From an uncultured Bacilli bacterium (lineage in GTDB: Bacteria > Bacillota_I > Bacilli_A > RF39 > UBA660): 61,170 nucleotides of DNA. Below, in pieces: positions 2,466 through 58,763 of this stretch. The position numbers and the translations under genes were made by a program. Positions within the stretch are counted from its first letter, which is position 1; each line of letters opens with the position of its first letter. Below the pieces are notes generated by a model, which was given only the letters and a program-made list of their open reading frames with translations, did not search any database and had not been told where the DNA came from. The stretch spans positions 74,889 through 136,058 of the forward strand of contig CANQYE010000001.1 of NCBI GenBank assembly GCA_947627995.1. Reading direction: 5' to 3'.

Positions 2466-3206
2466 ATGATGAATAATAAATCATTTATGTTTTTAGATAT
2501 AGCGTCTTCAACAATATTAAAAAACAATTATAAAATTGACACTAAAGAAACTAAAAATGCTACAATTTCTCATTTTATTATCGATGATAATAATTATAAA
2601 AATTTTAAAAAAAATAAAGGAGATTATTATACTATTCATTTAAATGATGAAAGATATAATAAAAAATATTTAATTAAAGAAATAGAAAGAATAATCGATC
2701 GTTTGTTAAATAAATATAATTGTTTTAATAAATTTTTAGTTGTTGGTTTAGGAAATAAAAATGTAATCTCAGATTCTATAGGAGTAAAAACTTGTGAAAA
2801 AATAATTGCAACTAATCAATATGATTTTTTATCTATACCTAAAGTAGTAGTCTTTGTTCCAGATATAATTAATAATACTGGAATTTCTTCTTTTGAATTA
2901 ATTAAAATGATTGTGTCTAGTTATAAACCAAAATGTATAATCATAATTGATTCTATGCTTACAAAACATGAGTATAACTTAAATAAAACTATTGAAATTA
3001 CTGATTGTGGTATTATTCCAGCGCAAGATTTAAAATTTAATAAAGAAATAAGTTATTCTACTTTTAAAATTCCTGTAATTTCGATTGGAATACCTTTAGT
3101 CATTAAAAAAAATAGTTTTTTGTTTTCTAGTGTTGATGTTTCTATGAAAGTTGATGAAATATCTAGTATTATTGCAAATAGTTTAAATAATATCTTTTTG
3201 TCTTAA
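2466..3206 (+). CDS. gpr: GPR/YyaC-family spore protease (germination protease-like), short form
   Basis: 246 aa. VVGLGNKNVISDSIG and IIIIDSM motifs resemble the A25 GPR family. Sits directly upstream of spoIIP, as gpr does in Bacillus. Confidence 0.55.
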   Translation: MMNNKSFMFLDIASSTILKNNYKIDTKETKNATISHFIIDDNNYKNFKKNKGDYYTIHLNDERYNKKYLIKEIERIIDRLLNKYNCFNKFLVVGLGNKNVISDSIGVKTCEKIIATNQYDFLSIPKVVVFVPDIINNTGISSFELIKMIVSSYKPKCIIIIDSMLTKHEYNLNKTIEITDCGIIPAQDLKFNKEISYSTFKIPVISIGIPLVIKKNSFLFSSVDVSMKVDEISSIIANSLNNIFLS

Positions 3207-3263
3207 TTCTACAAAAAAATTAATTTCTTTAATTTATAATACCCTTTAAGGAGGGTAGTTCAA

Positions 3264-4259
3264 ATGGCAAAGAAATTTAAAAGTAAAAAGATAAAGAAAA
3301 AAACTATTTTAAAAATAATATTTTTTTTAATATTTATTTATTTAACTAGTTTATTAACATATAATTTTTTATTTAAAAAATTTTTGAGTAATAAAATTAA
3401 TAATGAAAATCTTATTAATTATTTAATTAATAATACAATTAATGAGTCAGATAAAAAAAATATAAATGCTCATAATATTTTCAATTTAAATTTTAATCGT
3501 ACTTCTTCTTTGATAAATAAGAGCTTAAATAATATTGTAAAAAGTGATGAATATTTTGATAATAATGATGATGAAGAGTATGAATATGAAAAGCTAGAAA
3601 CAAAAACAGAATATTTTAAAGACCCTAATCCTACAGTAGTAGATAATCCAATAGTTTATATTTACAATACGCATCAGTTAGAAAATTATGCGGCCACGTA
3701 TTTATCTTCTTATAATATTGAACCGAATGTATTAATGGCTTCATATTTGCTTAAAGAAAAATTGAATGATTTAAATGTTTTATCAATTGTAGAAGAAGAA
3801 GATATTACTAACTTATTGAGAATAAATAATTGGAAATATAGTTATTCATATAAAGCCAGTAGATATTTTATTGATAATGCTTTAAAAAATAATCCGACTA
3901 TAAAATATATTATTGATGTTCATCGTGATTCGATTAGTAGAGATAAAACAACAATAACAATTGCTAATGTAAATTACGCAAAATTATTATTTTTAATTGG
4001 TTTGGAAAATCCTAATTATGAAAGTAATTTAAATGTAGCTAATAGAATGTGTGAAATAATTAACGAAAACTATAATAATTTATGTAAAGGAATTTATAAA
4101 AAAGGAGGAAAAGGAGTAAATGGAGTATATAATCAAGACGCTTTAAATACGGCTATGCTTATTGAAGTAGGCGGAGTTGAAAATACAATAGATGAAGTTG
4201 CAAATAGTATAGATGCTTTTTCTAAAAGTTTTTATAAATATTTAAAGGAGAATTCATGA
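3264..4259 (+). CDS. spoIIP: Stage II sporulation protein P (SpoIIP)
   Basis: 331 aa with an N-terminal TM segment and DVHRDS and MLIEVGGVENT motifs. Lies in gpr-spoIIP-yqxA-lepA synteny. Confidence 0.8.
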   Translation: MAKKFKSKKIKKKTILKIIFFLIFIYLTSLLTYNFLFKKFLSNKINNENLINYLINNTINESDKKNINAHNIFNLNFNRTSSLINKSLNNIVKSDEYFDNNDDEEYEYEKLETKTEYFKDPNPTVVDNPIVYIYNTHQLENYAATYLSSYNIEPNVLMASYLLKEKLNDLNVLSIVEEEDITNLLRINNWKYSYSYKASRYFIDNALKNNPTIKYIIDVHRDSISRDKTTITIANVNYAKLLFLIGLENPNYESNLNVANRMCEIINENYNNLCKGIYKKGGKGVNGVYNQDALNTAMLIEVGGVENTIDEVANSIDAFSKSFYKYLKENS

Positions 4260-42418: not shown

Positions 42419-43309
42419 ATGATAAAAACAAAAAATAAATTTTTAAAATATTTACAATTTGAAAGAAACTATTCTGCAAAAACTATATATAATTACAATG
42501 AAGATATAGAAAACTTTAATAATTATTTAACACGAAGAAAATTGAATTATTATTTAGACAAACAAGAAGTTCGTGAATATTTAAAATATTTAAGTAGTTG
42601 TAATTATAGCAGTGCTACTATATCTCGTCATTTAAGTTCTTTAAGAAGTTATTATAATTTTTTGAATATGAAAGAAATTATTGATATAAACCCATTTTAT
42701 AACATAAAAAACCCTAAAAAAGATAAAAAATTACCGATGTTTTTAACATATAAAGATTTAATTATTATGTTAAAAAATACTAATGTATCTAATGATGAAA
42801 ATTTAAACATTCGAAATAATTTTATTTTAGAATTAATATATTCAACTGGTATGCGGGTTAGTGAAGTTACAAATATTAAACTTAATGATATTGATTACAA
42901 TAATAAAACTATTATAGTTCATGGTAAAGGCAATAAAGAAAGAATAGTATATTTTGGAGAAGTGCTTTCTGATATTTTTGCAAAATATTTAAAAGCTAGA
43001 AAATGTATTATAAAAGATAAAAAAAATGATTATTTAATAATAAATAGTAGGGGAGAAAAAATAACTACTAGAGGAATAAGTGAAATAATTAATAAAATTT
43101 TAAAAAAGTCATCTTTAAAAAATAAAATTACACCACATACAATCCGGCATACTTTTGCAACTCATTTATTAAATAATGGTGCTGATCTTAAAACAGTCCA
43201 AGAATTATTAGGGCATTCCTCACTATCAACTACGGGAATTTATACACATGTTTCTAACGAAAGATTAAGAAATGTCTATTTAAAAACGCATCCACGTGGG
43301 AAAGAATAA
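42419..43309 (+). CDS. Tyrosine recombinase, XerC/XerD family
   Basis: SAM-like N-domain (FLKYLQFERNYSAKTIYNY) and RHTFATHLLNNGADLKTVQELLGHSSLSTTGIYTHV catalytic residues. Confidence 0.85.
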   Translation: MIKTKNKFLKYLQFERNYSAKTIYNYNEDIENFNNYLTRRKLNYYLDKQEVREYLKYLSSCNYSSATISRHLSSLRSYYNFLNMKEIIDINPFYNIKNPKKDKKLPMFLTYKDLIIMLKNTNVSNDENLNIRNNFILELIYSTGMRVSEVTNIKLNDIDYNNKTIIVHGKGNKERIVYFGEVLSDIFAKYLKARKCIIKDKKNDYLIINSRGEKITTRGISEIINKILKKSSLKNKITPHTIRHTFATHLLNNGADLKTVQELLGHSSLSTTGIYTHVSNERLRNVYLKTHPRGKE

Positions 43310-46806: not shown

Positions 46807-47988
46807 GATTATATAAATCAAAAAAAATATGGTTCAAAATCAAAAGACGCTTTAGTAAGCATTTTAAGCGCAAGTGATAATACGTATAAATCTATTACAG
46901 CAGTATTTGGACAAAAGATGAATATATTTGATGATGTTAATGTTGCTAATGTTACATCAACATCTGATTTTAAATTTAATGATTTAGGTAAAGAACCAAC
47001 TGCAATATATATGATAGTACCAGATGAGGATAAAACTTATTTTACTTTAGTTACTATTATAGTAGGACTTCTTTATAGAGATTTAGTTAAACTTGCTAAT
47101 TCAAATGAAGAAAAGAAACTCCCATATGAAATTGATTTTATATTAGATGAGTTTGCAAACTGTCCACCTCTTGCAGACATTGAAGCAATAGTATCTGTTG
47201 CAAGAAGTAGGGGCATGCACTTCCATTTTTTTATTCAATCTTTTTCTCAACTTGATAATGTCTATGGTAAAGATGTAGCACAAATTATTCTAGATAACTG
47301 TGGTCTTACATATTTAAAGACAAATACGCAAGAAACTGCCGAAGCTATTTCCAAAAGATTAGGTAAGAAAACTATCGAATCAAATAGTGTAAGACAGTCA
47401 ATGTCATTAATGAATTATAATGGTGATAGATCAACAAATCTTATAGGAAGAGATTTAATGACCCCGGAAGAAGTAAAACAATTACATTATAAGACAATTA
47501 TATTTCCGATTATTGGATTTCCAATATTTAGAGATACTATAATGTATAATAAATTTTCTTGCTATAAACCTGGAATGATAGAAAGAATACCTAAGCCACT
47601 GAAAGATTTATTTTATACTTATTTTGTTGTTGAAGATATTAAACATAAAATAAAAACAAGAAAATCAATACAAAATGATGAAAAAGAAATATATGAGCAA
47701 ATGGAACTTGCTGATAAAGAAAATTTAAAACCTTTAGAAGAAGTTATAGAAAAAATATTTAAAGAGGACTTTGATATAAAATATAATAGAACATTAAATA
47801 ATAGATGTTACTTATCAGTAACTATTAAAGACAATATTAATCAGAGACAAAAATTATTAATTAAATCTAAAATTAGAGAGGAACAATATCATGTAGAAAT
47901 AATTGAAAAAAAAGATAAGACAATCATAAATATACATAATGAAAATCCAAATTTAAATTTATTACAAAATATAAATAACGAAAGGTAG
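46807..47988 (+). pseudogene. VirD4/TraG-family type IV coupling protein, C-terminal fragment
   Basis: EIDFILDEFANCPP (Walker B-like), RSRGMHFHFFIQSFSQLDNVYG and LGKKTIES are typical of T4CP. No Walker A, N-terminal TM region or plausible start is present. The frame is open from 46807. Confidence 0.6.
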
Positions 47989-51260: not shown

Positions 51261-51917
51261 ATGGAGACTATTTTATTAGAAGAAGAAAATGCATTAGAAT
51301 ATATATATGATAGTATTTGCAAGGTTAAAAATGATGGTGAAGAAGTAAAAAATGCGAAATATCATCATAACACTGCATATAAGGATGCAGTGTCTATTTG
51401 CAAATATGGAATACTAACTTTAATTGACTTGAATTTTAAAGGAATTAGAAAAGATAGTAAAGAATTTTTGAAAATTATGAGTGATATAGATTCACATGTT
51501 AATGGTAATAATTGTGTTTCATTATCTGTGGTAGGTTTAACTGATATTTATCCAAACGAGGATGAATATAACCCTTTTTCACCGAATCTTGTCGACTTCC
51601 TTGTTAGCAGCGATGTACAAGCAAGTAGATCATCAACACATTATGGTAATGAATTTTTAAGTTTTGGCAGTATAATGAGAGACAAAATAAAATCAGTTGA
51701 CATTAGAATTTTAAATCTACTATGTCAAGACAAATCATATATGAATGATTCTTCAACACAAGCTATCATAAAGAAATATAATCATTTAAGGGAAATTGCT
51801 CTGGAATTAAAAAGACAACAATTAGGACTTCCTTTAAGAGAAATGTCTGAATCAAATATTTTTGAAATAAATATCGAAAAATTAGCTGATCAACCTAAAC
51901 TGTTATTAAAAAAATAA
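51261..51917 (+). CDS. Hypothetical 218-aa protein; weak resemblance to H-Y-E type ADP-ribosyltransferase-fold motifs
   Basis: Lies 18 nt after ackA with an AAGGAA SD. KYHHNTAYKDAVSICKYGILTL and HYGNEFLSFG segments. No confident family assignment. Confidence 0.4.
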   Translation: METILLEEENALEYIYDSICKVKNDGEEVKNAKYHHNTAYKDAVSICKYGILTLIDLNFKGIRKDSKEFLKIMSDIDSHVNGNNCVSLSVVGLTDIYPNEDEYNPFSPNLVDFLVSSDVQASRSSTHYGNEFLSFGSIMRDKIKSVDIRILNLLCQDKSYMNDSSTQAIIKKYNHLREIALELKRQQLGLPLREMSESNIFEINIEKLADQPKLLLKK

Positions 51918-51927
51918 TTGTAATTAG

Positions 51928-51957
51928 TTGATTTAATAGATACTTACTTGATAAAAT
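51928..51957 (+). promoter_or_regulatory. Candidate promoter of the WYL regulator gene
   Basis: TTGATT, an 18-nt spacer, then TGaTAAAAT. Confidence 0.4.
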
Positions 51958-51981
51958 GGATATTGATAAGGAGAAGAATAA

Positions 51982-52539
51982 ATGGGTAAATTAGGTAATA
52001 CTTTAGCAATGCTAAAAATTCTTGAAACTGGTAGAAAATATACTGTAAATGAATTAGCTTCTAAGATTGAAGTTTCTCCGAGAATGATTAAAACGTATAA
52101 AGCTGAGTTAGAAAAGGCTGGAATATATATTGATACAATTAATGGAATATATGGTGGATATGTTTATAATCATAAAAATAATTATGATGTATCTTTTAGT
52201 ATTAATGATGTTAGTTGCCTTGAGAAAATTATTCCTATGTTAGAAAACAAAAGTAGGAATGAAGCTGAACAATTACTTGAAAAAATAAAAACTATAGTTA
52301 TTTATTCTGATAGTAGTTCAATAGAAGAACAAGATTCACAAGAACTAAAAAATAAATATAATGTTATATCAAAGGCAATTAAAAATAATATTGATTTAGA
52401 AATTGAATATAAGAATAAAAATAAGATAGTAACTCCACATAATATGAGTTTTTATAAAAATTTCATATATTTAACTGGATATTCAAAAACAGATAAAGAT
52501 TTAAGAACTTATAATTTAAGTGAAATAAAAATTAAATAA
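51982..52539 (+). CDS. Short HTH-WYL transcriptional regulator (YafY/BrxR/CapW-like architecture without the C-terminal WCX extension)
   Basis: Winged-HTH N-terminus NTLAMLKILETGRKYTVNELASKIEVSPRMIKTYKAELEKAGIYI. C-terminus YKNFIYLTGYSKTDKDLRTYNLSEIK is WYL-like. Confidence 0.65.
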   Translation: MGKLGNTLAMLKILETGRKYTVNELASKIEVSPRMIKTYKAELEKAGIYIDTINGIYGGYVYNHKNNYDVSFSINDVSCLEKIIPMLENKSRNEAEQLLEKIKTIVIYSDSSSIEEQDSQELKNKYNVISKAIKNNIDLEIEYKNKNKIVTPHNMSFYKNFIYLTGYSKTDKDLRTYNLSEIKIK

Positions 52540-52569
52540 AATTCAAATAGTACGATATACTGCACCTTT

Positions 52570-52589
52570 TAGTGATATATTAATCACTA
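52570..52589. promoter_or_regulatory. Perfect inverted repeat TAGTGAT-N6-ATCACTA (candidate operator) overlapping a TGaTATATT extended -10 and abutting the SD of the operon's first gene
   Basis: Read directly from 52570..52589. AGGAGG follows at 52589..52594 and the GTG start at 52604. Confidence 0.5.
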
Positions 52590-52603
52590 GGAGGTGTTTT
52601 ATT

Positions 52604-53500
52604 GTGGATATAATTATGAAATTTGAAAAACCAGAAGTCAATATTGAATATTTTGGGCAACAATCAAGATTCTTCAAATTTTTTGAAATGGTAGTTGATG
52701 ATTTACTACATGGAAATGGTATATATGCCGAAACTAATTCAGGTTCAAATGGTAATGCATTTATGTATGCAAAGAAAGGTTATAAAGTCATTACTAATGA
52801 TGCAAGTGAGTATAGTTATTCAGTTGCTAATGCCATTATGAGTGACAATGTACCAAAAGAATTTAATTGCAAGTATAAATGGCTAAATAAATATTGTGAT
52901 TCATACATTGGTCGTGCTTCAGTTTTTGCAAGTGTTGTTGATTTATACGGTTACAATGCTGAAATTCCAAGTGAAGTAAATGAAGAATTAGAAAATAAAA
53001 TAAATGAATATATATCATATTTCAAGAAAATTAATGATGAAAAAGTAAGATCATATAAATCTTATAATGAAGATTTGTTTAACTATTTAAAAAAATTAAA
53101 AGAAGAAAAAATTAATGTAGATATTATGTTTATGGATTTTGCATGGCCATGGAGAGATGGTTCTAAAACAGAAGAATATAATACAACAGCTAATATTTAT
53201 AGTAATGTGTTTGAAAAATCTAAAATTGCAAATATTGAAATTTGGGATAAGGAAAATGTTATTGACAATGTAATTAAAGCAGTTAAAGAAGCTAAAAAAA
53301 TTTCAAAGTATGTTTTATTATCAAATCAAAGTTCAAACTATCCTACGCCAGAAGTTTTAGAAGTTGCATTATTAAAAAATGGTTTAAATTATGATGTAAG
53401 ACATACTATGCTTACAGATGCAGAATATGAGGATAATCTTGGTAAGGAAACATTTTTTAGAGAATACTTATATGTAATTAGAGGCGATATAAATGAGTAA
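52604..53500 (+). CDS. Dam-like (D12-class) methyltransferase-fold protein with divergent catalytic motifs
   Basis: Co-linear with Dam landmarks: YFGQQ (versus WAGGK), AETNSGSNG (versus EPFVGAGS), ITNDASEY (versus LADINSD), MDFAWPW (versus CDPPYAP) and VLLSNQSS (versus VLISNHDT). Confidence 0.5.
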   Translation: MDIIMKFEKPEVNIEYFGQQSRFFKFFEMVVDDLLHGNGIYAETNSGSNGNAFMYAKKGYKVITNDASEYSYSVANAIMSDNVPKEFNCKYKWLNKYCDSYIGRASVFASVVDLYGYNAEIPSEVNEELENKINEYISYFKKINDEKVRSYKSYNEDLFNYLKKLKEEKINVDIMFMDFAWPWRDGSKTEEYNTTANIYSNVFEKSKIANIEIWDKENVIDNVIKAVKEAKKISKYVLLSNQSSNYPTPEVLEVALLKNGLNYDVRHTMLTDAEYEDNLGKETFFREYLYVIRGDINE

Positions 53501-53978
53501 AACTAATTATCCATTAGTAAAAGTTGATTGGAACGAAGTTAAAAGATTAACACAAGGTATAGCAAATAAATTAATAGCAGATAATAAGAATATTGATTTA
53601 ATTGTTCCTATCATTAGAGGCGGAATGCCTATTGCAATGTTGTTATCATCAATGCTTGATGTTGAAGAAATGTCCTGCATTCATATAAGAAGAAGTATTG
53701 ATGATAATCCTAATACAGAATTTAAACGACCAGTTAATAAAGGAATAACAAATACAGAAAAAATTAAGAATTCTAATATATTAATTGTAGATGATACATT
53801 AGATTCAAAAATTACATTAGACTATGCAATTGATTTATTAAAAGAATATCAACCTAAGAGTATTACAGTAGCAATTTTATATAATTTTAACAAAAATACT
53901 TTTGATTCAATATATAGTGGAGAAGAAGTACAAGAATATAAATGGGTTGTTTTCCCTTGGGAAAAAAGTGAAAATTAG
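53493..53978 (+). CDS. Gpt-like type I phosphoribosyltransferase
   Basis: 161 aa. VPIIRGGMPIAMLL, the ILIVDDTLDSKITL PRPP-loop region and the KWVVFPWE C-terminus parallel E. coli Gpt. 8-nt overlap with the upstream gene. Confidence 0.7.
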   Translation: MSKTNYPLVKVDWNEVKRLTQGIANKLIADNKNIDLIVPIIRGGMPIAMLLSSMLDVEEMSCIHIRRSIDDNPNTEFKRPVNKGITNTEKIKNSNILIVDDTLDSKITLDYAIDLLKEYQPKSITVAILYNFNKNTFDSIYSGEEVQEYKWVVFPWEKSEN

Positions 53979-53989
53979 GAGGTATTGAA

Positions 53990-54439
53990 ATGAAAAATAA
54001 TAAATGGCAAGTATGTATATGTGGTGCTATAAAATGCGATAATGAATATTTAATGGTAAAAAGAAGTTTAGATGATGAGGATTGTGCTGGATTTTGGGAA
54101 ATGCCAAGTGGCAAATTAGAATTTGGAGAATCCGTTGAACAGGGATTACAAAGAGAAATTTTTGAAGAAGTTGGAATTGATATTAATCCATTCCAAAAAC
54201 AAATAATTGGTATATCAGAATACAGTTCTGAAAAACCAGAAGGAACTAAATATAGTGTACAATTAAATTATGTTGTTGAAGTTCCTACAAAAGATTTACC
54301 AATCAAGTTGAGTGAAGAACATACTGCTTATGTTTGGGCTACAAGAGATTCTGAATATGTTGATGAATTTATTGCAGAAATAATTGATGCTATAGAGCCA
54401 CAAAGTGAAGTTGGATATGCAAGAACTAAAAAAATGTAA
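53990..54439 (+). CDS. Nudix hydrolase (MutT-like), copy 1
   Basis: Nudix box GKLEFGESVEQGLQREIFEEVGI, AGGAGG SD. Confidence 0.85.
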   Translation: MKNNKWQVCICGAIKCDNEYLMVKRSLDDEDCAGFWEMPSGKLEFGESVEQGLQREIFEEVGIDINPFQKQIIGISEYSSEKPEGTKYSVQLNYVVEVPTKDLPIKLSEEHTAYVWATRDSEYVDEFIAEIIDAIEPQSEVGYARTKKM

Positions 54440-55265
54440 AAAAGTATTGGTTGAAGTAAATCAAACATGCAATTTAAATTGCACATATTGTTTTTATAGA
54501 GATTATGGCAGAGTTACTAATGGAATAAATCTTCAGAATATTGATGATTTGTTAGAAAATTGTCCATTAGCTGATGAATTCTATTTAACTGGTGGTGAAT
54601 GTTTTACTTCACCAATAATTGAAGAGATAATCGAACGATTAGCTCCTAGAGGCAAAGTTATTACTTTTACAAATGGAGTTATCTTAAATAAGTATGATGA
54701 TGAAAGATTAAAAAAAGTGGTGAATAATGTTGATACATTTATTATAACATTTGATAGTTTTGACACTGAAAATTACTTGTGTAGAGATAAATTATCAGAA
54801 ACTATAAGTACAATAAAAAAAATATTGAATATAGATTCAAACAAAGTAGAAGTTAAAGTATGTATTAATGAATATAATTATGATCATATAGAAGAATTAT
54901 TTGTTGGATTAATTGATATGGGAGTTAAATATTTATCTGTTAACTTTGTATTTGATATTCAAAATAGTAAATTAAATCACGAAGTTAAAGAGTTAAAAAA
55001 ATTAAGACATGTTTTTGAAGTTATTAATAATTATAGGGAATATTTTAATTCAAAATACATCGATATGCTATATGATTTATATATTAATAACGAAATAAAT
55101 GAAAGATTTCCATGTATTGCAGATTCTGAATATTATTTCTTAGATTGTTCTAATAATTATCTTATTTGTCCTGGAAATTGCAAAAAGTTAGGTACAAGGG
55201 GTGAATGGAAGGAATGCTTTTCAAAAGAATGTGCAAACGAATGGGAAATGATGTATACGAGGTGA
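54405..55265 (+). CDS. Radical SAM enzyme with a Cys-rich C-terminal (SPASM/twitch-like) region
   Basis: NQTCNLNCTYCFY CxxxCxxC motif and GGECFT. The C-terminus has 6 Cys in about 40 aa (CIADSEYYFLDCSNNYLICPGNCKKLGTRGEWKECFSKEC). Start candidates are GTG 54405, TTG 54411 or ATG 54417, all overlapping the Nudix gene. Confidence 0.8.
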   Translation: MKLDMQELKKCKKVLVEVNQTCNLNCTYCFYRDYGRVTNGINLQNIDDLLENCPLADEFYLTGGECFTSPIIEEIIERLAPRGKVITFTNGVILNKYDDERLKKVVNNVDTFIITFDSFDTENYLCRDKLSETISTIKKILNIDSNKVEVKVCINEYNYDHIEELFVGLIDMGVKYLSVNFVFDIQNSKLNHEVKELKKLRHVFEVINNYREYFNSKYIDMLYDLYINNEINERFPCIADSEYYFLDCSNNYLICPGNCKKLGTRGEWKECFSKECANEWEMMYTR

Positions 55266-55269
55266 TAGT

Positions 55270-55911
55270 ATGAATATAGTATTTGAAGGAATAGACGGAG
55301 TAGGAAAGACTACTGTTATTGATAGTTTAAAAAAAGATTTAGAAGAAAAAGAAGAAATTGTAAGATATGTTGATGAACTTACTCAAGATTCACCAATTAG
55401 TGATATTTTAAACAAAATGTTAAGTGATGATCCATTCTTTATGCTTGATAAAGGTTTTCCAACATCAATATTTGAAAGCTTATTACTAGCTGCAGATATG
55501 CATTATAGACAAGAAAAATACAAATATGATGATGGATTTAACTTATATGATCGAGACTTTTTATCAATTTTATCATATCAAAAAGAAATTTTAAAAGAAG
55601 ATTATAGTAACTATATGGATTTTTACCGTCCTTTTAAAGAAATAGTTTTATTTAATTTAAAACCAATTGATTTGTTAGTGTATATTCATGCTCCTCTAGA
55701 AGTTAGTGTATCTAGAGTTGCTAAAAGAGATAATATTGAATTTATCGAAAGTCAAAGAAAATTCTTACAAGCTTTAAAAACTTCTTTAGAAAGTGAGTTA
55801 ATTCCACAATTAGAAAAACAAAATGTTAAGGTTTTGAAATTGGATGGTAGAGACAAACCATATCAAAATGTTTCAAAAATATATAAGGAAATAGGTTATG
55901 GAAAGAATTAA
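55270..55911 (+). CDS. Thymidylate-kinase-like P-loop (d)NMP kinase
   Basis: MNIVFEGIDGVGKTT P-loop and YDRDFLSILSYQ (DRY-like) region. 213 aa, GAGGTGA SD. Confidence 0.7.
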   Translation: MNIVFEGIDGVGKTTVIDSLKKDLEEKEEIVRYVDELTQDSPISDILNKMLSDDPFFMLDKGFPTSIFESLLLAADMHYRQEKYKYDDGFNLYDRDFLSILSYQKEILKEDYSNYMDFYRPFKEIVLFNLKPIDLLVYIHAPLEVSVSRVAKRDNIEFIESQRKFLQALKTSLESELIPQLEKQNVKVLKLDGRDKPYQNVSKIYKEIGYGKN

Positions 55912-57172
55912 TGTTAATTGTGATTACATGATTTACTCTGATGAGGAAAAAAAGAGTGCATTAGAGTGTTTAGAAAATAGTGATTCAAGTATTTTTGTTG
56001 GTAATACTGTTAGTAATTTTGAACAAAAACTATCTAAATATTTGAATGTTCCATATGCTATAGCACTACCAAATTGCACACTATCTATTTATACAGCATT
56101 ACAAGTTTTAGGAATTGAGAATGGTGATGAAGTTATTGTGCCTAATTTAACTCATGCATCATCAATATATCCTATATTAATGAGTGGGGGAAAAATTAAG
56201 GTGTTTGATTTTGAACCAAATTCTTATTACTATGATTTGGAAAATATAAAGAAGTTAATAACACCAAATACTAAATTTTTCTTGGCATGCTATCTTTATG
56301 GTATGCCCTTAAATATAGAGGAAGTAAAGAAAATTTGTGATGAAAATAATATTACTTTAATAGAAGATGTAGCACAAGCATTTGGAACTAAAGTAAATGG
56401 AAAATATGCCGGAACATTTGGAAAAATAGGATGCTACAGCTTTAATGACACGAAAATGTTAAGAATAGGTGAAGGTGGAGCTATTGTTACTTCCGATAAA
56501 GATATATACGAAAAAGTAGAACATTTTAGACATGTTGGTGAAGTTTTTAATTCAACAAAACAATCTTCTGTAAGTTCAAATACAACATATAGAGATTTAT
56601 TGTTTAATGGATTATCTAATATGGGTAAAGGTTTAAATTTAAGACCATCTCCTATAACTTTTTCAACAGGACTTAAAAGAATTGATCATATCGATGATTA
56701 TATATCAGAACGAAGAAAAAAATTGAAGATTTATTTTGATCAACTTTCTAATCTTGAAGGTGTGCATTTTATAAAAAATTTTGATATTAATAAAGTTGAA
56801 GAATATGGCCCAATTGCATCATGGATTTTATTAGATAATAAATATTATGATAGAAACCGTGTTATTTTAGGTGCAATGAATATGGGAATTCCAGTTGGTT
56901 CATTCAATTATAATACAATTTCAAAAAACGATTATTTTAGTAATTTTATAACAAATAAAGGTGATAATTTAATAAATTCTCAATATGTAAGAGATAATAG
57001 TATTTTTTTACCTTTATACGAAACATTATCTTTAGATGACGTTGACAAAATAAGTAAAGCTTTTGCATACGTAATTAATAATTATTGCAAAGATATAGAA
57101 ATATTTGATGAAAGAGGATATGATGAAGAAATAAATTATTTCGATGGATTTTATCTAATGAGGAAAAAATAA
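55898..57172 (+). CDS. DegT/DnrJ/EryC1/StrS-family PLP-dependent aminotransferase (or dehydratase)
   Basis: GDEVIVPNLTHASS, IEDVAQAFG and the CYSFNDTKMLRIGEGGAIVT Lys region. 14-nt overlap with the kinase gene. Confidence 0.8.
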   Translation: MERINVNCDYMIYSDEEKKSALECLENSDSSIFVGNTVSNFEQKLSKYLNVPYAIALPNCTLSIYTALQVLGIENGDEVIVPNLTHASSIYPILMSGGKIKVFDFEPNSYYYDLENIKKLITPNTKFFLACYLYGMPLNIEEVKKICDENNITLIEDVAQAFGTKVNGKYAGTFGKIGCYSFNDTKMLRIGEGGAIVTSDKDIYEKVEHFRHVGEVFNSTKQSSVSSNTTYRDLLFNGLSNMGKGLNLRPSPITFSTGLKRIDHIDDYISERRKKLKIYFDQLSNLEGVHFIKNFDINKVEEYGPIASWILLDNKYYDRNRVILGAMNMGIPVGSFNYNTISKNDYFSNFITNKGDNLINSQYVRDNSIFLPLYETLSLDDVDKISKAFAYVINNYCKDIEIFDERGYDEEINYFDGFYLMRKK

Positions 57173-57843
57173 TGAATGAAATTTTATGGATATTAACACT
57201 TATTCTTTCATTTAGTTCAATAATTTTATGCTATAAATATTTAGGAAAAAACGGACTGTTTTTATGGATAATAGTTGCTACTATTGTTTCAAATATACAG
57301 ACAGTTAAAACTGTTGAATTATTTGGCTTAGAGACAGCACTAGGTACTATACTATATGGTAGTACATTCTTAGCTACTGATATTCTTAATTATAAATATG
57401 GATTAAAAGAAAGTAGAAAAACTATTATATATGGCTTTTTATCTATGACGATTATGACTTTATTTATGGTTATTTGCTTATTATATAAACCAAGTCCAAA
57501 TGATTTTGCTCAAGATAGTTTAATGACAATATTTTCATTTAATGTAAGAATTACTATTGGCAGTTTATTAGGATTTGTAATTAGTCAATTTATTGATACA
57601 GCTATTTTCCATAAACTGCAAAATAAATATAATAAATTATGGTTAAGTAACAATGTTAGTACAATGATTTGTCAAGCAATTGATACCATTATTTTTACAA
57701 TTGTTACATACATAGGAACTATGAATATAAATACGATTTTTGAAATAATGTTGTCGATGTATATATTCAAAATATTTATAGCAATTTGTGATACACCATT
57801 CATGTACATTGCTTCAAAAATAAAAAAGGTGAAAGAAAATTAA
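57172..57843 (+). CDS. VUT-family (YhhQ/DUF165) membrane transporter, the queuosine-precursor transporter family
   Basis: 223-aa polytopic protein with GSTFLATDILNYKYG, SQFIDTAIF and CQAIDTIIF motifs. The start overlaps the DegT stop (TAATG). Confidence 0.75.
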   Translation: MNEILWILTLILSFSSIILCYKYLGKNGLFLWIIVATIVSNIQTVKTVELFGLETALGTILYGSTFLATDILNYKYGLKESRKTIIYGFLSMTIMTLFMVICLLYKPSPNDFAQDSLMTIFSFNVRITIGSLLGFVISQFIDTAIFHKLQNKYNKLWLSNNVSTMICQAIDTIIFTIVTYIGTMNINTIFEIMLSMYIFKIFIAICDTPFMYIASKIKKVKEN

Positions 57844-58357
57844 AATATATATAGATTTTGACGGAGTAATTCTAAATACATGGGATATTATTTATCAAAA
57901 TTATACAACTCAATATTGCACAGAAGAAATAGATGAAGAAAATTTAAAGAAGTCTATGCTTGATCTTGGCTGGGATGTTATATTAGAAAATAGTGAAGAA
58001 ATTAATAATAGCTTTAAAAAAATTCATCATTTGATGAAAAACTATCAAATATTTATTCTAACTAAAGTAAATTCAGAAGAAGAACAAAAGGCGAAAGAAT
58101 TATTTTTAAAAAAGAAAAATATTTTTAATGTTATCTTTGTTCCATATAATTCTCTGAAATCTGATTTTGTAAAGCCGGTTGGCTCTATTCTAATAGATGA
58201 TGTTATACATAATCTTGAAGAATGGGAACAAAATGGAGGAATTTCTATTCTATTTAATGAACACATGAAAAATGAAGATAGTTATGGTAATAAAAGTAAT
58301 AAATTTATAATTATCGATGATTTATTAAAAATATGTGATATAATTAAAAACAGATAG
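57839..58357 (+). CDS. HAD-superfamily 5'(3')-deoxyribonucleotidase-like (NT5C-type) phosphatase, probably initiated at ATT
   Basis: HAD motif I (IDFDGVI) is encoded at 57851..57871, upstream of the first ATG (57956). The frame opens at 57833. AAGGTGA SD lies 6 nt before ATT 57839. ILIDDVIHNLEEW (motif IV) is in the C-terminus. Confidence 0.6.
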   Translation: MKIYIDFDGVILNTWDIIYQNYTTQYCTEEIDEENLKKSMLDLGWDVILENSEEINNSFKKIHHLMKNYQIFILTKVNSEEEQKAKELFLKKKNIFNVIFVPYNSLKSDFVKPVGSILIDDVIHNLEEWEQNGGISILFNEHMKNEDSYGNKSNKFIIIDDLLKICDIIKNR

Positions 58358-58367
58358 GAGGACTTTT

Positions 58368-58763
58368 ATGAATACGAAAATTGTTTTAACTGGAATTTTA
58401 AAATCTAACGATGAATTTTTAGTAGTTAAAAGAAGCGAAAATGATGATTTATACCCTGGGGCATGGGAATTCCCCGGAGGTCATTTAGAAAATGGTGAAA
58501 CCTTAAAAGAAGGTTTAAAAAGAGAACTATTTGAAGAAATTGGTTTTAATTCAGAATTTGAACCAATTATTACCCATTATTATGATGAAGTTAAAAATAA
58601 AAATGATGAATTGATTCATGATTTAGAAATTGATTTTATTATTAATGTTAATAAATCAGATGTTAATGTTATATTAAGTGATGAACATTGTGATTATAAG
58701 TGGGTAAATAAAGATTCTGAATTATTAGATGAGTACATTAAAGATAAATTGTCAAACATATAA
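58368..58763 (+). CDS. Nudix hydrolase (MutT-like), copy 2, paralogous to 53990..54439
   Basis: Nudix box GGHLENGETLKEGLKRELFEEIGF. The C-terminal LSDEHCDYKWVNKDSELLDEYI parallels LSEEHTAYVWATRDSEYVDEFI of copy 1. Confidence 0.85.
   Translation: MNTKIVLTGILKSNDEFLVVKRSENDDLYPGAWEFPGGHLENGETLKEGLKRELFEEIGFNSEFEPIITHYYDEVKNKNDELIHDLEIDFIINVNKSDVNVILSDEHCDYKWVNKDSELLDEYIKDKLSNI

Follow-up and report, generated by a model that had tools for sequence, protein, structure and literature searches.

The genes for a radical S-adenosylmethionine enzyme (rSAM), a Tmk-like nucleoside monophosphate (NMP) kinase and a DegT-family pyridoxal phosphate (PLP) aminotransferase lie side by side in DNA from an uncultured Bacilli bacterium (contig CANQYE010000001.1, positions 74,889 to 136,058). 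The whole stretch that was analysed, 61,170 nucleotides long with ~23% G+C across its length, is referred to here as the window. The trio is located within a plus-strand, tightly packed set of 11 genes (51261-58763), 10 of which, from 51982 on, can be assigned a function. Between 52604 and 58763 the genes overlap or lie no more than about 15 nt apart, and the largest spacers of the unit, ~65 nt, flank the gene for a WYL regulator on both sides. The trio is the core of a conserved, undescribed operon that occurs in gut bacteria and in cyanobacteria. The genes of the unit, including one for a phosphoribosyltransferase (PRTase), are arranged in the following order.

51261..51917, plus strand: conserved 218-aa protein without a Pfam or NCBIfam match, which often precedes the operon
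51982..52539, plus strand: transcriptional regulator with HTH_11 and WYL domains (PF13280, E 2.4e-7; PF08279, E 1.1e-6; PADLOC WYL, E 9.5e-23)
52604..53500, plus strand: MT298, a Dam-like protein of 298 aa with a class I methyltransferase fold (from Pfam matches of its relatives and a structural model)
53493..53978, plus strand: type I PRTase of purine type (PF00156, E 1.8e-21; PRPP motif ILIVDDTLDS)
53990..54439, plus strand: MutT-type Nudix hydrolase 1 (PF00293, E 8e-14), with an intact Nudix box, overlapping the rSAM start
54417..55265, plus strand (or from a GTG at 54405): radical SAM enzyme of a new, putatively twitch-like family (PF04055, 42.2 bits against a cut-off of 29.5)
55270..55911, plus strand: Tmk-like P-loop NMP kinase (PF02223, 43.6 bits against a cut-off of 27; PF01712, 38 bits)
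55898..57172, plus strand: DegT/DnrJ/EryC1/StrS-family PLP aminotransferase (PF01041, 238 bits)
57172..57843, plus strand: queuosine-precursor transporter of the COG1738/Vut_1 (YhhQ/QPTR) family (TIGR00697, 176 bits against a cut-off of 51; PF02592, E 8e-41)
57833..58357, plus strand: HAD/NT5C-like 5'-nucleotidase with a DFDGV motif and a mutated canonical start codon, with homologs in operon types A and D1 (defined below)
58368..58763, plus strand: MutT/NudI-type Nudix hydrolase 2 (PF00293; NudI, 55 bits, E 7e-15)

The rSAM reading frame can be opened at the GTG at 54405, but a length of 282 aa, found in nearly all of the 82 homolog clusters, favours the ATG at 54417 as the start; residues are numbered here on the 282-aa protein. 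The Pfam match, together with the CNLNCTYC and LTGGE motifs that are invariant in 73 homologs, places the protein in the radical SAM superfamily. A first-pass annotation, made by a model from the letters of the sequence, had pointed to CNLNCTYC and to six further Cys in the C-terminal tail (C-x10-C-x6-C-x3-C-x11-C-x4-C), and all of these are present. The protein contains 14 Cys, six of them in its last 55 residues, in a window whose proteins average 1.15% Cys; taken over the tail, such a content has a binomial probability of 4e-5, and over the whole protein one of 7e-6. Across 73 full-length homologs C233, C251, C267 and C272 are 99-100% conserved, while C244 is kept in 55% and C255 in 78%. 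Constraint therefore acts on four of the six tail Cys. The Cys-rich tail is real, and its four conserved Cys would suit one twitch-like auxiliary [4Fe-4S] cluster, not two. C233-x17-C251 spans a predicted hairpin (strand 239-242), which has a likeness to the C-x9-15-G-x4-C of SPASM/twitch domains, and is followed by C267-x4-C272. The basic residues R28, R32, R123, K147 and K270 are conserved across the family and would suit a phosphorylated ligand.

None of the NCBIfam models reached its cut-off with the rSAM; the best was TIGR04317 (tungsten-cofactor maturase; 57.5 bits against 380), and NF033640 gave 33 bits against 170. The SPASM model PF13186 was unmatched and the CX2CX5CX3C block is absent, which places the protein outside the SPASM subfamily. 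Identity with MoaA was rejected (TIGR02666 and TIGR02668, 43-44 bits against 284-325; tail spacing unlike Cx2Cx13C), as was identity with viperin or its prokaryotic form pVip (NF038283, 29.6 against 180 bits, over residues 18-128 only, with the auxiliary Cys conserved) and with QueE (the clostridial QueE-type model TIGR03963, 19.3 against 260 bits). The PADLOC pVip model matched the core only (E 7e-11). Membership among BtrN-type dehydrogenases was likewise rejected: the BtrN structure 4m7t aligned with residues 7-120 only, at E 6e-4, and BtrN was outside the top 50 Foldseek hits. The best sequence matches in the PDB include SkfB (1.7e-16) and CteB (3e-12), which are maturases of ribosomally synthesised and post-translationally modified peptides (RiPPs). 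An AlphaFold2 (AF2) model of the rSAM (predicted local distance difference test, pLDDT, 90) had BlsE, SuiB, viperin-like proteins, SkfB, anSME and MoaA as its top Foldseek neighbours, with template modelling (TM) scores of 0.59-0.67. Searches of the PDB and BFVD with this model gave no discriminating neighbour (TM about 0.6), and viral structures were no closer. A specific likeness to BtrN or DesII, which the first-pass annotation had cited as examples, was not borne out.

The rSAM family is small and has no informative functional annotation, its source names being generic (MoaA-type) only. Its members come from Microcoleus genomes and otherwise from metagenomes and metagenome-assembled genomes only. 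A phage or plasmid origin was considered and rejected, as IMG/VR, INPHARED and PLSDB contain no close homolog of the rSAM, only remote relatives of no more than 27% identity.

The kinase gene starts 4 nt past the rSAM stop and overlaps the DegT gene by 14 nt, in agreement with the translational coupling noted earlier. The kinase carries the Tmk signature P-loop (FEGIDGVGKTT) and DRD-x-LS-x-LSYQ, which corresponds to DR-x-x-x-S-x-x-x-YQ. It is not an orthodox dTMP kinase (TIGR00041, 50 bits against a cut-off of 83) and is described here as Tmk-like only; the PADLOC model of VakA, the viperin-associated kinase, matches it at E 1.6e-9. The aminotransferase has the SF-x-x-x-K motif that had been reported for it, in the form SFNDTK with the Schiff-base Lys186, and also an ED-x-AQ motif, EDVAQA (E155/D156). 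Both are conserved in all nine aligned orthologs, and the enzyme is therefore read as catalytically intact. The Pfam score and these motifs together establish membership of the DegT/DnrJ/EryC1/StrS family, which is specialised on keto-sugars. No NCBIfam model of a characterised DegT subfamily reached its cut-off; the best were of the PseC, LegC and WecE types, all far below (PseC, 155 against 423 bits). Its closest relatives of solved structure include the Kdo8N transaminase 5k8b (E 2.6e-34), and in a homolog search the best 120 matches were all orthologs from the operon.

To define operon types, a tblastn matrix over all fetched loci was combined with precomputed Pfam tables. The loci carry L numbers, and their gene contents are listed below.

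Type A (the window plus some 20 loci of gut and rumen Bacilli): gene content as in the window operon
Type B (Microcoleus, cyanobacteria, and L149): rSAM, Tmk, DegT, PRTase, PurN-like formyltransferase
Type C (L032, L146/147): GNAT, rSAM, Tmk, DegT, PRTase
Type D (L001-3, L013, L030/31): FemX-like transferase, PRTase, rSAM, Ham1, Tmk; no DegT
Type D1: Gmk, COG1738 transporter and a HAD-like protein in addition to the type D content
Type E (L058-L065, L068-L071; for example L062, 4130-10108): WYL, MT298, PRTase, MoaA-like rSAM, Tmk, COG1738, Ham1, NT5C-family nucleotidase, second Tmk-like kinase
L034 (no type): rSAM, Nudix, PRTase, Tmk
L148 (2832-9944): rSAM, PRTase, Tmk, DegT, then, in the same orientation, QueC, QueD, QueE, FolE and an HD/YfbR-like 5'-deoxynucleotidase

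The order rSAM-Tmk-DegT recurs in Microcoleus (37-40% identity), L032, L146/147 and L149. It is beyond chance, being found in a cyanobacterium and in several unrelated low-GC contigs, and the module is conserved across phyla. In every locus that is not cut by a contig end, a PRTase and a Tmk-like NMP kinase accompany the rSAM family, and the kinase gene lies directly downstream of the rSAM gene in types A, B, C and D1. The invariant core thus consists of rSAM, PRTase and Tmk-like kinase; DegT, present in types A, B, C and L148, is frequent but facultative. Nudix or Ham1 proteins were found in types A, D and E and in L034, HAD-like nucleotidases in types A and D1, and an HD/YfbR-like one in L148. 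Because PRTase and NMP kinase occur with the rSAM in every locus that can be judged, usually joined by a nucleoside triphosphate (NTP) pyrophosphatase and a nucleotidase, a nucleotide is indicated as the substrate, the class that had been proposed from the window. We are fairly confident that this is a nucleotide-tailoring operon.

Sequence identities of rSAM and DegT vary together between loci (L032 and L146, 55% and 64%; L014 and L149, 44% and 58%; the window and L014, 37% and 40%), as expected of a co-inherited module. The rSAM/DegT pair recognised in the window is not obligate, since type D keeps the rSAM without DegT. In related Bacilli, type E operons occupy the same chromosomal site downstream of ackA and are allelic to the window operon. 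The slot between PRTase and kinase holds a MoaA-like paralog in these operons, with about 100 bits over its full length to MoaA models and a C-x2-C-x16-C tail; DegT is usually absent, though L064 has one.

Some of the loci have conspicuous neighbours. The Microcoleus module (L014, 7272-9784) follows immediately on genes for a XamI restriction endonuclease and an Eco57I-type methylase, with ParA/ParB genes in the vicinity, and in L032 (5889-12397) a type I restriction-modification (R-M) system with an AAA_21 ATPase follows the module. These R-M neighbours could reflect a defence-island location or a functional link. In L046 a 567-aa fusion (2532-4235) of a viperin-like rSAM domain (NF038283, 126 bits) and a LysR-type regulator is encoded immediately ahead of a PRTase-rSAM-Tmk-DegT operon in which MT298 and the first Nudix gene are missing. 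The GNAT-rSAM-Tmk-DegT-PRTase genes of L146 (1-16463) are part of a larger nucleoside-type cluster that adds an APH-like kinase, a GT2 glycosyltransferase, a cytidine-deaminase-like protein, a second dNK-like kinase and an rSAM/SPASM protein, and ahead of which lie genes for an HNH nuclease, a Lactamase_B/Apyc1-like protein and a 905-aa HSP70-like protein. Near the L148 module, a gene for an ATP/ADP translocase (TLC) suggests an intracellular bacterial host. A 219-aa type D2 protein was considered as a nucleoside-diphosphate kinase and rejected, as Pfam, NCBIfam, PDB and BLAST matches were all insignificant.

The remaining genes of the window operon were assigned in the same way. The best NCBIfam models for the PRTase are xanthine and hypoxanthine PRTases, all below cut-off, and all PRTases of the related operons are likewise nearest to hypoxanthine or xanthine enzymes. 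The transporter belongs to COG1738/QPTR at the level of the family, and its orthologs (46-60% identity) are encoded in types A, D1 and E. MT298, found in types A and E, has no direct Pfam match. An exhaustive HMMER search yielded 59 representative relatives, and among 34 that were scanned seven match PF02086 (D12 N6-adenine methyltransferase) and five PF22555 (phage Dam-like domain). Its AF2 model (pLDDT 89) has a class I methyltransferase fold, with Mcbe1 and E. coli Dam as top Foldseek hits (TM about 0.45), and carries an invariant D-x-A-W-P-W where Dam has DPPY. A link to DpdM, the phage preQ1 methyltransferase, was rejected, as DpdM is an unrelated DUF3109 metal protein (PMC10516641).

The DFDGV motif of the nucleotidase lies upstream of the mechanical open reading frame call (57956-58357), which omits it. 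The start codon of this gene is ATG in L042, L043 and L004 and AAG in the window (T to A at 57834), L006 and L041; an ATT at 57839 behind a Shine-Dalgarno-like AGGTGA could serve as the start. Homologs of 173-177 aa are found in types A and D1. In type E the gene that follows MT298 and the second Tmk-like kinase matches the nucleotidase by position and belongs to the NT5C family (PF06941, E 7e-21). Nudix 2 is conserved at the end of type A operons. The WYL regulator heads type A and most type E operons. In L149 a 305-aa protein (254-1171) encoded upstream of the type B-like module has a weak WYL likeness, with 25% identity (E 2e-4) to the regulator of the window, and WYL-type regulation may reach beyond types A and E. 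The neighbours of type A and type E operons include homologs of the 218-aa protein (37-65% identity); its membership of the system is uncertain. Amid housekeeping genes, a few kb ahead of the operon, are a tyrosine integrase (42419-43309) and a 356-aa fragment of a TraG/VirD4-type coupling protein (46918-47988), which are possibly remnants of a mobile element.

Context beyond that used by the first-pass annotation bears on the identity of the base, namely the transporter, the PRTase and the L148 locus. Characterised COG1738 members all move preQ0, preQ1 or queuine (PMC5372724, PMC11130926). The FolE-QueD-QueE(-QueC) core is absent from the window and present in L148, where QueC (147 bits), QueD (88), QueE (136) and FolE (GTP cyclohydrolase I; 152) make up a full preQ0 pathway; no transglycosylase is encoded in the 10 kb contig of L148. 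In tubercidin biosynthesis a PF00156 PRTase is documented to act on CDG, itself a 7-deazaguanine base (PMC6112128, 10.64898/2026.04.15.718813). The transporter and the preQ0 genes fused to the module in L148 are two independent lines that point to a 7-deazaguanine of the preQ0/preQ1 type, and on these grounds we lean, if only slightly, towards this base.

The explanation that we favour, tentatively as a whole, is that the trio forms the catalytic centre of a unit that builds and tailors a non-canonical purine nucleotide. The COG1738 transporter would import the base and the Gpt/Hpt-like PRTase would join it to PRPP, giving the 5'-monophosphate. The Tmk-like kinase would then form the diphosphate, and housekeeping enzymes the triphosphate. 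The twitch-type rSAM would abstract a hydrogen of the ribose, the 3'-H being favoured, and convert the carbinol to a ketone with the auxiliary cluster as electron sink, and transamination of this ketone by DegT would give an amino-deoxy nucleotide. Phosphates would be stripped off by both Nudix enzymes (MutT-type) together with the HAD/NT5C-type nucleotidase. A tailoring group would be added by the Dam-like MT298, or in sister operons by a formyl-, acetyl- or aminoacyl-transferase; the transferases of the operon types would decorate the amine made by DegT. The WYL protein would regulate the operon. Gene content, intact catalytic motifs, the occurrence of the module in different phyla and its linkage to preQ0 genes and preQ-type transporters are observed; inference supplies the identity of the base, the site at which the rSAM attacks, the ketone intermediate and what becomes of the product, which may be a nucleoside antibiotic, an antiviral chain terminator or a nucleic-acid precursor.

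Two known enzymes bear on the central step. MoaA abstracts the 3'-H of GTP, and BtrN is a twitch rSAM dehydrogenase that stands in for an NAD enzyme ahead of a DegT-family aminotransferase. Oxidation of a ribose carbinol, probably that at C3', with subsequent transamination and dephosphorylation would be the most economical course because of the MoaA-like protein in the type E slot, the keto-sugar bias of DegT enzymes, the BtrN/BtrS precedent and the logic of the Pur and Adg pathways. We regard ribose oxidation plus transamination as a reasonable guess, with the odds somewhat against it. In the Pur and Adg pathways a dehydrogenase (Pur10/AdgB), an aminotransferase (Pur4/AdgC), a Nudix enzyme (Pur7/AdgD) and a phosphatase (Pur3/AdgE) act on ATP or GTP (PMC11641026, PMC9239236), and the proposed pathway would overall be an anaerobic analogue of Pur10/Pur4/Pur7/Pur3. 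The keto-then-amine chemistry suggested by the first-pass annotation matches the puromycin and 3'-amino-3'-deoxyguanosine pathways, which are established by experiment; the rSAM itself has no specific affinity to BtrN or DesII.

The puromycin, A201A and cystocin genes and Photorhabdus adgA-E (3'-amino-3'-deoxyguanosine) share with the window operon the set of an oxidising enzyme, an aminotransferase, a Nudix enzyme, a monophosphatase and a transporter, and work on a purine NTP; Pur5 would be the methyltransferase counterpart in the puromycin-type system (PMC11641026, PMC9239236). The window operon differs in that its oxidant is an rSAM instead of the NAD-dependent Pur10 type and its phosphatase is HAD/NT5C-like, not IMPase-like. 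It also adds a PRTase, an NMP kinase and a COG1738 transporter, and its base is probably 7-deazaguanine. Membership in the Pur/Adg pathway was therefore rejected: there is no Pur10-type oxidoreductase, the phosphatase is of another family, and the Nudix and aminotransferase agree at family level only, so that the likeness is a functional one. A search with the published primer for the Photorhabdus adg operon gave no exact match among GTDB representatives.

The BtrN/BtrS pair of butirosin biosynthesis resembles the window in having a small rSAM with one twitch auxiliary cluster (predicted in the window) beside a DegT-family enzyme, and an anaerobic replacement of an NAD dehydrogenase would fit both. 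The marginal sequence likeness, the different Cys spacing and the nucleotide context set the window enzyme apart from BtrN, which acts on an aminocyclitol. MoaA is also an rSAM with a C-terminal auxiliary cluster, again only predicted in the window, and its purine NTP substrate is of the kind proposed here; the window rSAM differs in its score (44 against 284 bits), its four-Cys tail with other spacing and the lack of a MoaC/Moco context. As in viperin and pVip systems, the rSAM is paired with an adjacent NMP kinase and shows weak HMM and fold similarity, whereas its four-Cys auxiliary site and its partners (PRTase, DegT, transporter) differ. The toyocamycin, sangivamycin and tubercidin clusters combine FolE-QueD-QueE(-QueC), a PF00156 PRTase and phosphate removal, which is the layout of L148 (PMC6112128, 10.64898/2026.04.15.718813). 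QueE is the sole rSAM of those clusters, which lack DegT and a Tmk-like kinase and are hosted by actinomycetes. The window, in contrast, has an importer in place of the synthesis core, and the module is hosted by gut Bacilli and cyanobacteria.

Several observations weigh against the favoured pathway. DegT is missing from type D, whose rSAM is of the same family and keeps all of its conserved residues, and from most type E operons, so the rSAM product is not always transaminated. The rSAM has no specific likeness to known dehydrogenases (BtrN as above; SpeY with a low TM score), and its structural neighbours, which include decarboxylases, thioether synthases, viperin and MoaA, are equally distant. 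The FemX-like and MT298 tailoring genes occur without DegT, and their products may have a target other than an amine made by DegT. Types B and C have neither the transporter nor preQ0 genes nearby, so the assignment of 7-deazaguanine rests on types A, D1 and E and the single locus L148. In addition, an Rfam scan of the whole window at gathering thresholds returned no family, preQ1 riboswitches included; the sole match within 51-59 kb was a chance miRNA (E 0.38).

In a first alternative, the rSAM and DegT would act on the C7 substituent of a preQ0-type nucleotide. An aldehyde formed there would be converted to a 7-aminomethyl (preQ1-type) group, bypassing QueF, and the transferases would decorate the amine, an outcome resembling the methyl- and formyl-preQ1 of phage DNA (mdPreQ1 and fdPreQ1; PMC10516641). 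The L148 operon encodes FolE, QueD, QueE and QueC and no QueF, and PurN-like formyltransferases follow the module in Microcoleus and L149, in parallel to the predicted preQ1 formyltransferase DpdN (PMC10516641). The closeness of DegT to the aldehyde-aminating Kdo8N transaminase also fits, and the N-modifying enzymes without DegT in types D and E would fit import of preQ1, which is already an amine. However, the kinase is of the usual NMP type, not an activator of carboxylates, and the universal rSAM would be left without a role in the DegT-less operons. A radical SAM reaction that turns a nitrile or a carboxylate into an aldehyde is not known, so that chemical precedent is lacking as well, and side-chain chemistry is judged distinctly unlikely. 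Ordinary salvage of queuine, preQ1 or preQ0 for tRNA-guanine transglycosylase (TGT) is highly improbable. TGT exchanges free bases, which leaves no place for a PRTase, an NMP kinase, NTP pyrophosphatases and a sugar-type aminotransferase. The transporter, above its NCBIfam cut-off, would be expected in such a pathway, and the radical SAM queuine lyase QueL of Clostridioides difficile salvage is a precedent for the rSAM (PMC11130926, PMC11477304). Yet the operon has no tgt, queA, queG/H or queF and no preQ1 riboswitch, the rSAM is far below the cut-off of the clostridial QueE-type model, and types B and C lack the transporter.

Another alternative mainly concerns the biological role, its chemistry overlapping with that of the favoured explanation. 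In an antiviral or conflict system with viperin-like logic, the rSAM would make a chain-terminating NTP analogue (dehydrated, cyclised or aminated), the pyrophosphatases would shield the host and the WYL protein would be the switch. Such a role would be in line with the weak PADLOC matches of the rSAM to pVip, of the kinase to VakA and of the regulator to WYL, with the R-M genes directly beside the Microcoleus and L032 modules and with the viperin-like rSAM-LysR fusion directly upstream in L046. Moreover, operons that are otherwise orthologous differ in which of two rSAM families and of four kinds of tailoring enzyme they carry, suggesting diversifying selection. Against such a role stand the viperin score of the rSAM and its auxiliary Cys, as viperins have no auxiliary cluster. 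The gut Bacilli operon also lies at a stable syntenic site beside ackA with no obvious island, a dedicated base transporter and nucleotidases would fit metabolism or secretion better than abortive defence, and phage and plasmid collections hold no close homolog; we consider an antiviral role unlikely. A peptide-modifying SPASM/twitch maturase, or a DegT serving a nucleoside diphosphate (NDP)-hexose glycan pathway, the two readings that the first-pass annotation had set against its own, could draw on the SkfB and CteB matches and on the PseC, LegC and WecE types of the best DegT models, but has a probability close to negligible. The tight packing leaves no space for a precursor gene and the SPASM model is unmatched. 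The earlier observation that NDP-hexose-forming enzymes are missing held in the ~40 kb of the window with readable Pfam content (16-35 kb lay outside this survey), and no nucleotidyltransferase or 4,6-dehydratase was found in the surveyed parts or in any related locus. In every lineage, nucleotide enzymes make up the conserved partners, and the DegT subfamily models are far below cut-off.

The favoured pathway, rSAM oxidation and DegT amination of a purine nucleotide, can be extended further, although we consider the extension unlikely. In a chromosomally encoded system, an amino-modified 7-deazaguanine (deoxy)nucleotide would be made through the nucleotide pool, by PRTase and kinases instead of TGT/DpdA exchange, with a new rSAM reaction at its centre, and would act as an antiviral chain terminator or feed the hypermodification of nucleic acids. 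The alternation of tailoring enzymes (methyl, formyl, acetyl, aminoacyl) and of two rSAM families would then be the mark of an arms race.

No description of the module came up when the literature was searched for this combination of genes, and a 2026 genome-mining survey of 7-deazapurine clusters contains no DegT or rSAM module. Tailoring by an rSAM plus an aminotransferase and PRTase-dependent formation of 7-deazapurine nucleotides are already known in kind. If the favoured explanation is true, the operon would encode the first radical SAM route to an aminated nucleotide, and for the first time a PRTase would be seen to bring a 7-deazaguanine base into metabolism in a setting other than the antibiotic clusters of actinomycetes. 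As an amino-deoxy 7-deazapurine, in nucleoside or nucleotide form, the predicted product falls in a class with antibiotic, antiviral and chain-terminating activity, and the operon is small and self-contained and thus amenable to heterologous expression. It is found in gut Bacilli that are abundant and uncultured, and in a cyanobacterium that forms blooms. A function would be assigned to an rSAM family comprising about 90 sequence clusters, and COG1738 transporters would gain a role beyond the salvage of queuosine for tRNA.

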